Positions 1,820 through 64,000 of a DNA stretch of 64,000 nt are shown piece after piece. The translations under genes were made by a program, and so were the position numbers. The notes under the pieces are model-generated. The model did not search any database. It was not told the DNA's origin and saw only the letters and a program-made list of their open reading frames with translations. Every line of letters begins with the position of its first letter. Positions within the stretch are counted from its first letter, which is position 1. This DNA is from a virus (taxonomy: Duplodnaviria > Caudoviricetes), in IMG/VR virus record IMGVR_UViG_3300031134_000004, positions 32,001 to 96,000 of that record. The stretch is one strand, 5' to 3'.

Positions 1820-3361
1820 TTGAAACTAGAAATTAACCGATTCGGTCTTCAAGGGGCACCGTCGCAAGTGAACCTGGAGCATCGTGGTGTAGTGCTCGAA
1901 TGGAACATCGCTTTGTTTGACAAGGCAAGTTTCAATGGTGAGTTCGATATCTTCGAACAAATCAACGGGTACTGGGGGCACCTGGCGATGGAAGTACAAG
2001 ACAAGATCTTCAATGTGTATCAACGCATTAAAGATGTGTTCGATTCCGTCTGGGAAAACAGTGAACTGACCAAGCAGTTGTACCAGCTCATCAAAGAGCT
2101 GTACGTGCACCATCAGTTAAGCGACATCAAGTTCTGGATCTCGTTTCGCAGTAACGTCGTGGTGCCGGCTGGCCTGCGTGAAGAATTCAAAGAGTCGCAC
2201 GAAACACCAGGCACGCGTGAACGCACGTACCTGAAGGCAGACTACGAGTGGCTCGTGGCACTGTCTGTTGCACTGCGTCCCATGGTTCCAATCTGGGGCG
2301 AGTTCATCAACCGCACGCGTCGCGATGCCGGTACGGTGTTTAAAGAGTACTACGCATTCCAGTTGCTGGCGTACTCGAGCTTGTACAACTCTGAACCAAT
2401 GGAGCGCCTGCGTGTCTACGTGGAGCATTCCTTGCCAGCGGAGAAGTCCAAAGCAGCAGCCATCTTCGGCGGCATTTCGTCAGAAGACTTTCCGATGTGG
2501 GTGTTGGGTCTGGTCGTTGTTCGGCGTTTGTCTATCGGCGACGTACGCGGCACTGATCCAGGCACCACGCTTGTGAGCTTTATCTACAAGTACATCGGGC
2601 AAAAGGTGAAGGGGCATGACAACAACTTCATCGGCATGGTCAAAGACAAGCAAGTCGAAGGTCAGGGGCAAGAAGGGGAAAACAACCTGTCCAAACTCGA
2701 AGGGTACAAGATCAAGCAGGAAATTCCTGCGGGCGATATCGCCATCATCGAGTACCGTGCACGTCAACCGCTGCATCTGGCCAAGAAGCTGTGTCCTGAC
2801 ATCAGTGAAGAACTGGTGAAGGAATCGATCGCTACGGTGACGGCGGCGCTGCAAAACAGCACGATCTTCAATCCGCAAATGACCATGGTGCAATGGGTCA
2901 TGGCTGGCGTCTTGCCACCACGCGGCTTGTTGCATCTGAAGAAGACCACGGTCTTGATGGTCATGGGTGTCGTGCAAGCGATCCTGTGGCACAAAGGTCA
3001 CCGTGAGTTGGCAGGACTCATGACGGCGCTCGAACAAGACAGCGACGATGAGATGCTGCTCGGTGGTACGGATTCCCGTGCCCGCATTCCCAAAGACATG
3101 CTCGAGCAACTCGATGCGCTGTTCCCATACTCGCGTCGTCCAACGGGCAAGATGCGTCAAGTCAAGCGTACCAACGCTGCGATCGAGACCATCGAAGAAC
3201 TCAACAAAGGGTTCGGTAGTAACGTGTGGCGTCTCACCCTCCCAGCAGCTTGGGTCGAGCAAGTCACCGGTAATAAAAACAATCGGCGGTATAGCACCCC
3301 GCACGATATCAAAGTCAAGTTGGCAGCCCTTGCCATTCAATTAGCACAACGTACGTTTTAA
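1820..3361 (+). CDS. Non-virion RNA polymerase specificity subunit (phiKZ gp68-like)
   Basis: 513 aa, TTG start after AAGGGG; size and position between chmC and picA match gp68; ALRPMVPIWGEF and KLEGYKIKQ segments. Confidence 0.7.
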   Translation: MKLEINRFGLQGAPSQVNLEHRGVVLEWNIALFDKASFNGEFDIFEQINGYWGHLAMEVQDKIFNVYQRIKDVFDSVWENSELTKQLYQLIKELYVHHQLSDIKFWISFRSNVVVPAGLREEFKESHETPGTRERTYLKADYEWLVALSVALRPMVPIWGEFINRTRRDAGTVFKEYYAFQLLAYSSLYNSEPMERLRVYVEHSLPAEKSKAAAIFGGISSEDFPMWVLGLVVVRRLSIGDVRGTDPGTTLVSFIYKYIGQKVKGHDNNFIGMVKDKQVEGQGQEGENNLSKLEGYKIKQEIPAGDIAIIEYRARQPLHLAKKLCPDISEELVKESIATVTAALQNSTIFNPQMTMVQWVMAGVLPPRGLLHLKKTTVLMVMGVVQAILWHKGHRELAGLMTALEQDSDDEMLLGGTDSRARIPKDMLEQLDALFPYSRRPTGKMRQVKRTNAAIETIEELNKGFGSNVWRLTLPAAWVEQVTGNKNNRRYSTPHDIKVKLAALAIQLAQRTF

Positions 3362-3378
3362 ACAAGGAGTCAATAATC

Positions 3379-4824
3379 ATGGAACATCTCAAGTCTTTCC
3401 GTATCAGCAAACTGCTCTTGCAAGAGAGTGGCACGTATAACGATCAGATGCGTCGTCGTTACGATACGGTATTGCAAAACAACACGATGAACATGATGGC
3501 CGAACGTTTGGCTGGCGTGTCCGAATACCAAGCACCGCTCTTTGCTGGTATTGCCAACCAATTCATCGCGCCGCAAGCAACGCCTGAAAAGCAGATCGAC
3601 ATCAGCAACGGCTGGTCCGAACGCCGCATGCGCTTCATGATGGAAATCGAGATCGACTTGTACATGGGCGGTCGTATCAAGGAAGTCATCCTGGGCTGGA
3701 CGAGCCACCTGGGTATTTCGACTGCCGGCCAGATCGATCCGCAAATGGAATTCTTCGTGAATTCCACGCTGCAAATTCGCGAGACCATCGCCAATACGCC
3801 TGTCGGTCGTCAGACCTACTCGTCGGTCGTGGACAACTCGCACATCCTGGTTGACCCAAGCTGGAGCAGTATCTACACCGCGCAAGCCGATACGCGCCTG
3901 CGTCCAGAAGACGTCTTTACCACGATGAGCCGTACGCACCTGTCCGGTCTGGGCAAAGTCGCTGACGGTCGCACGATGTCGATGAACACGGCTGTCAAGT
4001 CGCGTCGCAGCAATGGTTCGGCAGCGAACTACATGGCTGACATCCTGCGCAGCCACAAGCAAGCATCGGTGCTCGAAGAAGCCGGTGCGGGTGAACAGGA
4101 AATCCTGATGAAAGCCCGTGGGTTCGCTCAGGAAAACATCGCTGCTGCCGACTACTTCCTCGCCGCTATCTCGCAACTGCGGGGCATGGGTGTGTCGAAC
4201 GTGTTCCAGTACAGCGACCTGATCTCGCTCGATGAAGGCGTCACGCATAACACCGTGGCGTCGTTCCTGGGCCAGACCCAAAAGTCGAGCGTACACCAAC
4301 AAGGTCAGACGCAGCACTGGGCAGGCGCCGATGCAGAAACCGTAGCAGCTACGGTACTGAGCCAATCGGTGCCAGCAGCCATGATGGAAGTGGGCCTGAC
4401 GAACGTCATGTTCAAGTCCACCAACCAAGACATCGGTAGCCAGATGCATACGGTCTTCATGGACATTCGTGGTTTCGTCCACGGCGACCTGTCGACCCAA
4501 GCGCAATACCTGCGTAACCAACTCGAGCAGACCATCCTGCGCGATTTGACCTACAACAACTCGATCTCGTATTCGGTCGAGATGAGCGTGGACTTGCTGG
4601 GGGAAACCTGGATCAAGATCTCGCTCAATGGTGGTCCGTTCATCGACTACGTCACGCCAAGCTTCTGCGATGCGCTGACGGTGCCGGTCCTGACCAACAA
4701 CAGCAATGCGGCAACGCAACTGGCGAGTGACTTCGAACTCCTGGCCAGTGCTTTGAGCGAAGCGTCCAAAGACGCACATCCAACGATCCAGTCGGCCGGC
4801 GGCACGGCGTGGGGTAACATTTAA
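3379..4824 (+). CDS. picA: Phage-nucleus protein importer PicA/Imp1 (phiKZ gp69-like)
   Basis: 481 aa; SGTYNDQMRRRY, GWSERRMRFMMEI, RLRPEDVF and PSFCDAL motifs; position directly after the gp68-like gene; AAGGAG RBS. Confidence 0.7.
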   Translation: MEHLKSFRISKLLLQESGTYNDQMRRRYDTVLQNNTMNMMAERLAGVSEYQAPLFAGIANQFIAPQATPEKQIDISNGWSERRMRFMMEIEIDLYMGGRIKEVILGWTSHLGISTAGQIDPQMEFFVNSTLQIRETIANTPVGRQTYSSVVDNSHILVDPSWSSIYTAQADTRLRPEDVFTTMSRTHLSGLGKVADGRTMSMNTAVKSRRSNGSAANYMADILRSHKQASVLEEAGAGEQEILMKARGFAQENIAAADYFLAAISQLRGMGVSNVFQYSDLISLDEGVTHNTVASFLGQTQKSSVHQQGQTQHWAGADAETVAATVLSQSVPAAMMEVGLTNVMFKSTNQDIGSQMHTVFMDIRGFVHGDLSTQAQYLRNQLEQTILRDLTYNNSISYSVEMSVDLLGETWIKISLNGGPFIDYVTPSFCDALTVPVLTNNSNAATQLASDFELLASALSEASKDAHPTIQSAGGTAWGNI

Positions 4825-60844: not shown

Positions 60845-60877
60845 CATGCGTGAGGGGTGACGCCCTCGCGCTCTATG
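60845..60877 (+). terminator. Hairpin followed by TATG
   Basis: catgcgtgaggg-gtgacg-ccctcgcg-ctctatg. Confidence 0.5.
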
Positions 60878-61432
60878 AATGGCTACCTAAGAAAAATGCC
60901 TGCACACAAAAAAGAAACTCGCAAACACGACCATCCTCAATACAAACGTTGGTTAAGTATGAACCAGCGCTGTAACAATCCGTCTATCCGGGGTTGTAAT
61001 GAGCGTCGTGCTCTTGGAGTGAAAGTCGACCCTGTTTGGGAACAAGACAATCCTGAAGGACTCAACAACTTCACAATGTGGGTTGAGGAGAAGTTGAAAG
61101 AAACACCCGAACTACGTTCTGTAGAGTATCGCATCATTCGGACTGACCTTAGCAAAAACTATGGTCCTAACAACTGTATTCTGGGAACACCCCAAGAGGC
61201 CACGCAGCATCGTGTCACAAGTGTATTGACGGAAGAACTCGTCATTGCCATGCGTCGACATAAGCGCGCTAATCCGGATACCAGTTTAGCCCAAATGGAG
61301 AAACTCTTTGGACAACATCAAGTCAATATTTCACGCTGTCTTCGCGGTATTACGTGGGACAGTGTCAACCATATCGAAGCACCCATCCCGAAACACGGGA
61401 GCATTAAAGAGGACAAACAAGATGAACACTAA
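60875..61432 (+). CDS. HNH-like endonuclease homologue with C-terminal HTH, probably degenerate
   Basis: YKRWLSMNQRCNNP...VKVDPVW...IIRTD...NYGPNNC..GT..E and LTEELVIAMRR...FG.HQVNISRCLRG.TW. Confidence 0.7.
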   Translation: MNGYLRKMPAHKKETRKHDHPQYKRWLSMNQRCNNPSIRGCNERRALGVKVDPVWEQDNPEGLNNFTMWVEEKLKETPELRSVEYRIIRTDLSKNYGPNNCILGTPQEATQHRVTSVLTEELVIAMRRHKRANPDTSLAQMEKLFGQHQVNISRCLRGITWDSVNHIEAPIPKHGSIKEDKQDEH

Positions 61433-62111: not shown

Positions 62112-62579
62112 ATGAGTAGCGAGAACGAATCAAGCAATGGTCTGCGCGACTACGAGATGTACGATGGTCCTGACCGTGAGCACAATCTGGGCGTTATTCG
62201 TGATGTCAATGCAGCGATTAGCCCGCTGGTTATTCAGTCTGTAGAAAAGCACAACCTGGGTGGTTTCTTGACGCGTCACCATCCTAAGCAGCTAGACTAC
62301 GGTCAGCTCGTACACCGTGGCTGGCTCAAAGACGGCTCGCCCTTTAACATCTACGAACGGGGCTTTATTCTCGTACGACGCAAGAAGGGTGACGAACCGC
62401 AGGAAGTTGGCGAACACTTCACACGTCAAAATGTGCTCAATAGCGGCTCGTACTTTTGCGAGGCCGAACTGACACCATACCAGATCAAAGTTTTGACGGA
62501 ACGCATCCGTCACAATGACTACGCCAGTTACGATTTTACGCAACGCGATTTGCAATATCTGAAACTGATTCGAGAATAA
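62112..62579 (+). CDS. Hypothetical protein, 155 aa
   Basis: AAACAAGGA RBS. Confidence 0.72.
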   Translation: MSSENESSNGLRDYEMYDGPDREHNLGVIRDVNAAISPLVIQSVEKHNLGGFLTRHHPKQLDYGQLVHRGWLKDGSPFNIYERGFILVRRKKGDEPQEVGEHFTRQNVLNSGSYFCEAELTPYQIKVLTERIRHNDYASYDFTQRDLQYLKLIRE

Positions 62580-62591
62580 GGACAACGATTC

Positions 62592-63899
62592 ATGGGTGGT
62601 TTGTCTGTACAGTGTGAGACCCCAGGTTGTTCAGAAAGGTACGATGGCGGTAATGGCACCACAAAGCCAGGACCCTATCGTCCTCAGGGGTATCATTTTA
62701 GTGAGAAAGCACGTATTCTTAAAGACGTCGCCACACTAGGATGGATTCACTTGAAAGAAAAGAATATCGACTACTGCCCCCAATGCGCAAATACCATGTA
62801 TGAGAGAATGAGAACAGCTCTCATGAAAGAACAAAACAGATCCATCGAGGAAGATAACATGACCGAACAAGTTACCGCACACATTCTGAACGATTCGCCA
62901 ATGGGCGTCATCAAAATCGAAGCCCTGGGTGAAGGACCATTTGGTGGCCACAACCACTACCTCATCACAGGCTTTGACAAGACCAAGAACCCCCACTACA
63001 GCGACCGCGATGCAGACATGGCGCATCACCGCGCTCAGACTGACATCTACTTCCAGCATGGCAATCCTGTACCCGATGGTCCGAACGGCATTACGATCGA
63101 AGTACTGCTCGCCATCGCCGCCCATCGCCTGGAAGGCTTCCAGAAAGGCAAGTTCGCTAACGAGCACAACGTGGTTGCCCTGGACAAGATCTACGGCGCC
63201 CTCGACGCTCTCAAAACGCGGGAGCTGAGTTACCTCAAACCTGACTCGGCACCCGACACGTCCAAGACTACGCACTTCCCGAATAAGGAACTGCAGTACT
63301 CGGTCAACACCTTGCGTGAATTCATGCATCTGTTTTCCAAAGACACGCTCGACAAAATGGAGCTGTGCCATTTCTCGGAAGAGTTGGTCGATCAGATGGA
63401 AGCAGAAGTTGGCGCGATGGATGTTTCGGAAATCATCAAGACAGAACTCATGGCTGCCATCCAGCGCTGCGCTGGCAAGTCCCTGATTTCGATCACCAAT
63501 ACGTCCGAGCAAGAACTGCCTGAACGCGTTGTCATGACCGATCCCGAAGAACTGTGCGACACTGCTTACTGGAGCGAATATCCACATCGCCCCATCAAAG
63601 CGCACGATGCTACGATTGAAGTGACCATTGTGACCGACGCCCGGCAAAGCGGCACCGACGTACTGGCTGAACACATTCGACGCACGCTCATCGACGGTGG
63701 TTACAAGCGGGTTGCGCAGTACGCCCGTATCGAAGAAGACGGTTCAGTCGATCCACGTCCAACCCATGGTTCGGACGCAAAACGGCTGGTGGAACTGTAT
63801 GGTCAGGAAACTGCTGACAAGATCATCGACAATCTGAAGAACGTCAACATCAAGATCGTCACTGACATCGTCGCAAGCAAGCAACGCACCCGGCAATGA
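62592..63899 (+). CDS. Multidomain protein: Cys-rich N-terminus, Tad1-like domain, and unknown C-terminal region
   Basis: GEGPFGGHNHYLI...IYFQHG...NGITIEVLLAIAAHRLEGFQKGKFANEHNVVAL...AL..L..R matches the recalled Tad1 pattern; TAAGGA RBS. Confidence 0.75.
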   Translation: MGGLSVQCETPGCSERYDGGNGTTKPGPYRPQGYHFSEKARILKDVATLGWIHLKEKNIDYCPQCANTMYERMRTALMKEQNRSIEEDNMTEQVTAHILNDSPMGVIKIEALGEGPFGGHNHYLITGFDKTKNPHYSDRDADMAHHRAQTDIYFQHGNPVPDGPNGITIEVLLAIAAHRLEGFQKGKFANEHNVVALDKIYGALDALKTRELSYLKPDSAPDTSKTTHFPNKELQYSVNTLREFMHLFSKDTLDKMELCHFSEELVDQMEAEVGAMDVSEIIKTELMAAIQRCAGKSLISITNTSEQELPERVVMTDPEELCDTAYWSEYPHRPIKAHDATIEVTIVTDARQSGTDVLAEHIRRTLIDGGYKRVAQYARIEEDGSVDPRPTHGSDAKRLVELYGQETADKIIDNLKNVNIKIVTDIVASKQRTRQ

Positions 63900-64000
63900 A
63901 ACGCCACCAGCAGTTGCTCTTAATACTGCTGTACGGCGTCATGTCCTGCGCGATCGTATTGCCCGTCATGCGTTTTCTTGAAGCAACGCGTGTTTGGCAT
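63896..64000 (+). CDS. Start of a hydrophobic hypothetical protein (truncated by window end)
   Basis: ATGA overlap; MKRHQQLLLILLYGVMSCAIVLPVMRF... Confidence 0.5.
   Translation, partial: MKRHQQLLLILLYGVMSCAIVLPVMRFLEATRVWH

Follow-up and report, generated by a model that had tools for sequence, protein, structure and literature searches.

The 64,000-nt stretch of viral DNA analyzed here (the window, bases 32001–96000 of a 224,654-bp viral record) carries on its plus strand, at 62592..63899, an uninterrupted open reading frame (ORF) of 435 aa plus stop, with an AAGGA sequence 8 nt ahead of its ATG. On balance, we consider it probable that the product is a modular counter-defence protein of a nucleus-forming jumbo phage, whose core is a divergent, lid-less domain of the Tad1 family that would act as a sponge for immune signals by the mechanism outlined below. 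Alignment with the few full-length relatives resolved the protein into four modules, called here Z, T, H and C from the N-terminus to the C-terminus, of which T is the Tad1-like one. An earlier note on this DNA had described a three-part fusion with a Tad1-like stretch at ~62859–63225; the stretch is borne out by sequence, profile and fold, as module T (62859..63242, plus strand, aa 90–217), and the fusion is real, but it comprises four modules, since the C-terminal ~220 residues form two separable ones.

Judged from sequence comparisons and structural modelling, aa 90–217 are a homologue of Tad1 with a predicted Tad1 fold. The segment contains the Tad1 motifs EGPFGGHNHY, IYFQHG, PNGITIEVLLAIAAHRLEGFQKGKF, NEHN..AL and ALDALKTR, with the invariant junction RELSY(L/I)KP at its C-terminal end. 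The phmmer search against all PDB chains identified the gp184 protein of phage phiKZ (8Y6V chain I, E-value 1.2e-6), with the solved Tad1 chains at E-values of ~0.04, while PHROG 2428 matched aa 144–211 (E-value 1e-12); PHROGs match the Tad1 part only, via families of unknown function. An exhaustive search of 1.8 billion representatives retrieved 814 relatives at E<=0.001 (54 at E<=1e-10), nearly all of which align to aa ~90–215 and most of which are stand-alone proteins of 120–140 aa. When a family profile made from 61 relatives was compared with the PDB, it matched gp184 (4.5e-28), CbTad1 (8.7e-23) and CmTad1 (1.9e-19), and no other family. The AlphaFold2 (AF2) model of aa 90–215 is confident, with predicted local distance difference test (pLDDT) values of 85–97, and has the N-terminal antiparallel sheet and the two long C-terminal helices typical of Tad1; the comparison with Tad1 structures suggested in the earlier note was made with Foldseek against the PDB, and the best 20 matches were all Tad1 (probability 1.00, target-normalized template modelling (TM) score 0.65–0.80). 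The ratio of non-synonymous to synonymous substitution rates (dN/dS) for module T is 0.017 against a 93% identical orthologue, P0002, and the module is under very strong purifying selection.

Prediction of a homodimer of aa 90–218 gave an ipSAE of 0.86, compared with 0.00 for the best control, and three runs agreed on at least 93% of contacts with pLDDT of at least 85. In the calibration, 20 of 30 true homodimers and 1 of 23 monomers attained the mark, and the score may partly reflect likeness to, or memory of, the solved Tad1 dimers.

Three kinds of functional site are known in CbTad1: gcADPR and cyclic dinucleotides occupy a pocket made of F82, N92, R109 and R113 and covered by the C-terminal lid 116–122 (Li et al. 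preprint, PMC10680739), cyclic trinucleotides bind at a site comprising R90 and T97, the contacts of the hexamer include M104/W105, and the R109A/R113A double mutant loses binding (PMC10680739). Mapped onto the protein by HMMER alignments, F82 corresponds to F183, N92 to N193, R109 to R210, R113 to Y214, R90 to E191, T97 to D198, and M104/W105 to D205/A206. Three of the four known pocket residues are retained (F183, N193 and R210), at positions that carry F in 131, N in 150 and R in 150 of 151 relatives. The pocket comparison with Tad1 proposed in the earlier note has a divided outcome, as these three residues are kept but the equivalents of R113, the lid, R90/T97 and M104/W105 are absent.

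The mechanism that we favour can be outlined as follows. Module T would form an intertwined homodimer of the Tad1 type and would sequester a signal made by a TIR protein or a CD-NTase (gcADPR-like or a cyclic dinucleotide) in the pocket at the dimer interface, via F183, N193 and R210. Its specificity has probably shifted, with Tyr214 in place of the second arginine and with the lid replaced by the RELSY(L/I)KP junction that leads into the helical bundle of module H; with Glu191 and Asp198 at the positions of R90 and T97, the module would not be expected to bind cyclic trinucleotides. Modules Z, H and C would be orphan accessory modules exchanged at the locus, with H as the constant companion of T, and their most likely role is to alter how the protein is delivered or assembled or which ligands it takes, not to add a recognizable enzyme. 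The gene is likely to give rise both to the full-length Z-T-H-C protein and, by initiation at Met90, to a T-H-C form that lacks Z.

A number of observations weigh against this reading and are best considered together. The position of R113, which is arginine in 117 of 151 relatives and tyrosine in only 5 of 151, is Tyr214 here. The GVEGT-like lid (CbTad1 116–122) is absent, and L-K-P and further domains follow instead; in agreement with the earlier note, which had described the usual C-terminal tail as replaced by ~220 more residues, the R-x-x-x-R...GVEGT ending is missing, with R210 kept and Tyr214 standing for the second arginine. The hexamer-interface pair M104/W105 is represented by Asp205/Ala206. 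Pfam PF24729 (Acb2_Tad1_hairpin) has no match at the gathering score in the protein or in the whole genome, and its weak precomputed matches are confined to P0002 and to the metagenomic protein P0066. Modules Z, H and C are without a convincing match in Pfam, PHROG, PDB, AlphaFold DB, BFVD or ESM Atlas. Finally, a survey from the Sorek lab tested 84 homologues of the sponges Acb2, Tad1 and Tad2 against seven defence systems, and 19 of them were inactive against all seven (PMC12393519).

Not all of these deviations are peculiar to this protein. R90 is retained in 10 and T97 in 12 of 151 relatives, and both are absent from gp184; taken together, the R90/T97 and M104/W105 residues are absent from most near relatives and from gp184. 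Lack of the trinucleotide site is the usual state in this branch of Tad1, and only a small subfamily has Tyr214 and is without the lid. Within that subfamily the R-E-L-S-Y-(L/I)-K-P sequence that follows the second helix is invariant among proteins only ~46% identical, which points to a functional junction adjoining the pocket. With Tyr214 in the pocket and the lid lost, an altered ligand specificity of module T is plausible. Since module T lacks the second pocket arginine and the lid, we classify it from its sequence as a homologue of Tad1 rather than as a canonical sponge of that family.

The modules that surround T are of different kinds. Module Z (62592..62858, plus strand, aa 1–89) is a zinc-ribbon-like segment with four cysteines (C8, C13, C62, C65), a conserved GPYRPxGYHFS motif and a long helix (aa 63–88), modelled by AF2 with low to moderate confidence. 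Module H (63285..63497, plus strand, aa 232–302) is a small four-helix bundle with pLDDT of 82–96 in the full model, and module C (63516..63896, plus strand, aa 309–435) is an alpha/beta domain of beta-alpha-beta repeats, ending in K/R-TRQ, with pLDDT of 63–80. The Cys-rich N-terminal segment noticed earlier is real: C8, C13, C62 and C65 are conserved in the related protein P0003 and in P0041, a stand-alone Z protein of 131 aa, whose contig has a separate Tad1-like gene (138 aa) 6 kb from the Z gene. In that contig the ~2 kb after the stand-alone Z gene (L014:4670-6660) are without a called gene and contain short ORFs only, and may represent a non-coding element; the upstream neighbours of the stand-alone Z gene and of the Tad1 fusion are unrelated to each other.

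Comparison of the locus among relatives reveals considerable variation. P0002 has the same Z-T-H-C architecture, P0003 (168-kb contig, 39–46% identical over its full length) is Z-T-H-H-C, and the proteins of two sister phages are T-C-H (P0004) and T-H (P0005), all of them at the same syntenic site. Module H adjoins T in all locus variants and is duplicated in P0003; module C is present in P0003, and its order is changed in P0004. These alignments indicate that modules have been gained, lost, duplicated and reordered at one locus among sister phages. Of the 152 close relatives of Tad1 compared for extensions, 87 are without any and stand alone, 43 (including gp184) have an N-terminal extension only, 14 a C-terminal extension only and 5 both, with three of the last five belonging to the Z/T/H/C family described here.

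Purifying selection acts on each of the four modules and is strongest on T and H. Relative to P0002, dN/dS is 0.15 for the whole gene, 0.22 for Z and 0.25 for C, and it is 0 for H, which shows 6 synonymous and no non-synonymous changes. The fusion is in frame in three assemblies, and the constraint in all parts indicates that every part is translated and that the fusion is not an assembly artefact.

The ATG of Met90, i.e. the first codon of module T, is a candidate second start (62847..62861, plus strand). As the earlier note had pointed out, a possible internal ribosome-binding site precedes it: GAGGAAG at 62847–62853 lies 7 nt ahead of the ATG at 62859–62861, and initiation there would give a Z-less T-H-C protein. 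Met90 aligns exactly with the initiator methionine of P0005 and of many stand-alone Tad1 homologues. In the P0003 gene AAGGAA is found before the homologous methionine, though the encoded linker differs; the two genes share ancestry, and the two Shine-Dalgarno-like sites are not independent events. Within the genome, such a site precedes 20 of 1409 internal in-frame ATGs (1.4%), as compared with 69 of 188 gene starts. That the site has been retained between genes so diverged is consistent with a second start that functions and yields an isoform without Z, which would plausibly be laid out identically to the proteins of the sister phages. The suggestion that the site reflects two isoforms or a recent fusion gains indirect support from the alignment of Met90, the conserved Shine-Dalgarno-like site and its rarity inside genes.

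The phage is phiKZ-like in its gene content. The genome encodes the split multisubunit RNA polymerase of phiKZ-like phages, a homologue of the nuclear shell protein chimallin (E-value 6.8e-22) and a homologue of the phiKZ head protease gp175 (E-value 3e-35), which marks it as a nucleus-forming, phiKZ-like jumbo phage; the chimallin homologue also substantiates the nucleus context that the earlier note had assumed. The fusion gene is the sole Tad1 homologue found in the 224-kb record. The DNA appears to stem from a metagenome of the phyllosphere, and the phage is an uncultivated one.

This context raises the question of delivery. In phiKZ, gp184 has been published as a Tad1 (bioRxiv 10.1101/2025.11.23.690004; PMC13282480, citing Li et al., Nature 2024). 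It is a minor protein of the inner capsid, is located at the vertex complex and is processed by gp175 (PMC11297242), and its injection has been validated (PMC10449902). The present protein could similarly be a packaged precursor, in which Z and its helix target the prohead, the head protease cuts at [S/A]-I-E before the Tad1 domain, and the released T-H-C part is ejected with the DNA and neutralizes signals before the nucleus forms. This possibility, which would differ from the favoured reading in delivery and not in sponge activity, seems to us doubtful but worth serious attention. It is in line with the gp175 homologue in the genome, with S84-I85-E86 here and A78-I79-E80 in P0003, both at the Z/T junction, with the related protease of SPN3US, which cleaves after A-X-E and removes N-terminal propeptides (PMC10052503), and with the frequency of purely N-terminal extensions among Tad1 relatives counted above. 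However, the alignment to gp184 covers aa 107–210 only and the N-termini are unrelated, the cleavage motif is short and no commoner than chance (4 sites seen, about 7 expected by composition), and P0004 and P0005 are without any N-terminal extension. Moreover, unlike a propeptide, Z has the look of a folded Cys4 domain and is also found as a gene of its own, and the fusion gene is surrounded by nucleotide-metabolism and fibre genes, not by head genes.

The losses around the pocket could also be explained if the Tad1 fold had been re-purposed, i.e. if module T no longer bound immune signals and served only as a dimerization scaffold, with H and C carrying the real activity. The missing lid, the tyrosine at the R113 position, the missing trinucleotide site and the missing hexamer contacts would all be accounted for, the dimer interface is confidently predicted, and H, always beside T, is at least as constrained as T. 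We nevertheless regard a pure scaffold as unlikely: F183, N193 and R210 would be needless in it and yet are retained, the dN/dS of 0.017 applies to the whole domain, and the RELSY(L/I)KP sequence beside the pocket, invariant among proteins only 46% identical, suggests a functional site.

Searches with the added modules returned little. Pfam searches with the whole protein and with its three parts gave nothing above noise. Modules H and C together, folded apart from the rest of the protein, yielded a poor model (mean pLDDT 58), for which VIA-align against the PDB found generic helical bundles only (best Z 5.3) and comparison with AlphaFold DB clusters and BFVD found nothing below an E-value of 0.04. 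In the ESM Atlas, C and H were without a usable match, and Z was matched only by sub-threshold small phage proteins. KaiB/OmpA-like entries of the PDB appeared for module C, but they are weak (E-values about 0.2–0.7) and are not counted as evidence. No further family members came from a word-indexed search with aa 215–435 or from scans of IMG/VR and JGI metagenomes with profiles of C and T, and the profile search with H and C added one fragment only, P0154. Within the genome, single-sequence searches with Z, T, H and C revealed no paralogues. In public data the Z, H and C modules are very rare.

One exception is P0066, a metagenomic protein in which the profile of C finds a distant copy of the module after a Tad1 domain (E-value 3.9e-5, alignment over the whole module), so that the T-C pairing recurs. 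Between the first strand and the first helix of C lies the loop T-D-A-R-Q-S-G (aa 348–354, 63633..63653, plus strand), whose R-Q-S-G is invariant in P0001, P0003, P0004 and P0066. Its position is P-loop-like, with the Walker lysine absent, and the sequence hints at a phosphate-binding loop. The profile of C also aligned this loop weakly (E-value 0.002) with the Walker A sequence GDQDSGKT of a 105-aa protein encoded in the same genome, which we treat as a lead only. Outside the window, at G000:C1:140780-142923 (L017:1281-1727, 1826-2143, 2741-3424), the genome encodes tandem small proteins that share a strand, a P-loop and a helix; Walker A is intact in two of them (GTSNTGKT, GDQDSGKT) and degenerate in the third, and they are without a family match. 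The 105-aa protein belongs to this set, which thereby has a weak profile link to module C.

One may ask whether H and C, and perhaps Z as well, are novel binders of ligands or inhibitors of defence in their own right that have been joined to Tad1, so that one protein would block several signalling defences. The traffic of modules at a single orthologous locus, the recurrence of C after the distant Tad1 domain of P0066 and the invariant R-Q-S-G, at a strand-to-helix junction where phosphate-binding loops usually lie, would agree with such a multi-sponge or multi-inhibitor. Nevertheless, with no fold or family match for Z, H and C, an AF2 model of C of only moderate confidence and the great rarity of the modules in public data, we find it improbable. 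A related proposal, which we make only tentatively, is that of a counter-defence hub, in which Tad1 is combined with up to three new modules, at least one of them (most plausibly C with its R-Q-S-G loop, or H) being a new immune-signal binder or defence inhibitor, and in which the internal start yields forms with and without the zinc module. The suggestion of the earlier note that the protein is a ligand-gated sensor, in which signal binding by the Tad1 domain switches a fused effector, draws on the architecture only (a binding domain and then ~220 residues) and is very improbable, as the Pfam, PHROG, PDB, AlphaFold DB and BFVD searches detected no catalytic or effector family or fold in the added parts, and the variable order of H and C together with the dispensability of C in P0005 fits poorly with a fixed sensor-effector coupling.

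The surroundings of the gene are largely conserved. A gene of 155 aa (window 62112–62579), without a family match, directly precedes the ORF and is its constant neighbour, present at all four variant loci with 19–41% identity. The synteny common to the four variants runs from thymidylate synthase through several small genes and this conserved ~140–158-aa gene to the Tad1 fusion, and on to collagen-like and beta-propeller fibre genes. The contig from the only RNA run, a metatranscriptome, spans 62200–62336, i.e. 137 nt of the upstream gene, with the Tad1-fusion gene outside it, and scans for promoters and terminators gave results at chance level only. A gene for an HNH endonuclease (window 60857–61432; PHROG 8790/374/3377, E-value ~1e-12), likely a mobile insertion, separates the thymidylate synthase block from the Tad1 locus. 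On the other side, the stop codon of the fusion gene overlaps, as ATGA, an ORF of 91 aa (window 63896–64000, continuing to G000:C1:96172; L004:97-372) with a hydrophobic helix at its N-terminus, which is also found after P0002 and not at the P0003 or P0005 loci; it may encode a translationally coupled small membrane protein. An antisense ORF of 312 aa (window 62736–63674, minus strand) was rejected as a shadow ORF: homologues are lacking, and the substitutions follow the pattern expected for the plus frame.

Tad1 has been described as the only anti-defence protein so far known in jumbo phages (PMC13282480), and apart from gp184, which is packaged and has its extension at the N-terminus, the published cases are sponges that stand alone. 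The present case differs from these in having a lid-less Tad1 domain in the middle of a larger protein, with partner modules shuffled among sister phages, one pocket arginine changed and an invariant junction in place of the lid. If module T still binds a signal, the locus would be a natural experiment on how changes of lid and pocket retune the specificity of a sponge; if it binds nothing, a sponge fold would have been reused as a scaffold. The orphan modules Z, H and C may be regarded as candidates in the search for novel ways of countering defence.

Among the known systems, the stand-alone proteins CbTad1, CmTad1 and SBSphiJ7 Tad1 (7UAV, 7UAW, 8SMD, 8KBB-8KBH) share with module T the fold, the F82/N92/R109 residues and the intertwined dimer, which is predicted here. 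They are, however, only ~22% identical to it and about 125 aa long, whereas here R113 is replaced by Tyr, the lid by a junction into further domains, R90/T97 of the cA3 site by Glu/Asp and M104/W105 by Asp/Ala. The nearest stand-alone relatives are the metagenomic proteins P0007 and P0008 (129–134 aa, 47–48% identity over module T); P0008 has the same R-x-x-x-Y-L-x-P ending, but both consist of a single domain and stop a few residues past the second helix. P0066 (313 aa) resembles the present protein in the succession of a Tad1 domain and a distant module C with the R-Q-S-G loop, and differs in its 37% identity in T, in the absence of Z and H and in being known only from a 1.4-kb contig. The closest parallel is gp184, the best match to module T among proteins of solved structure (34% identity), which likewise belongs to a nucleus-forming jumbo phage, has extra sequence added to Tad1 and is devoid of the R90/T97 residues. 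In contrast to the present protein, gp184 has only its own 100-aa N-terminal extension, unrelated to module Z, lacks H and C, and keeps the canonical R-x-x-x-R...GTEGT tail and lid; it is also capsid-bound, protease-processed and injected (PMC11297242, PMC10449902). The precedent of gp184 makes an extended Tad1 in such a phage less surprising.

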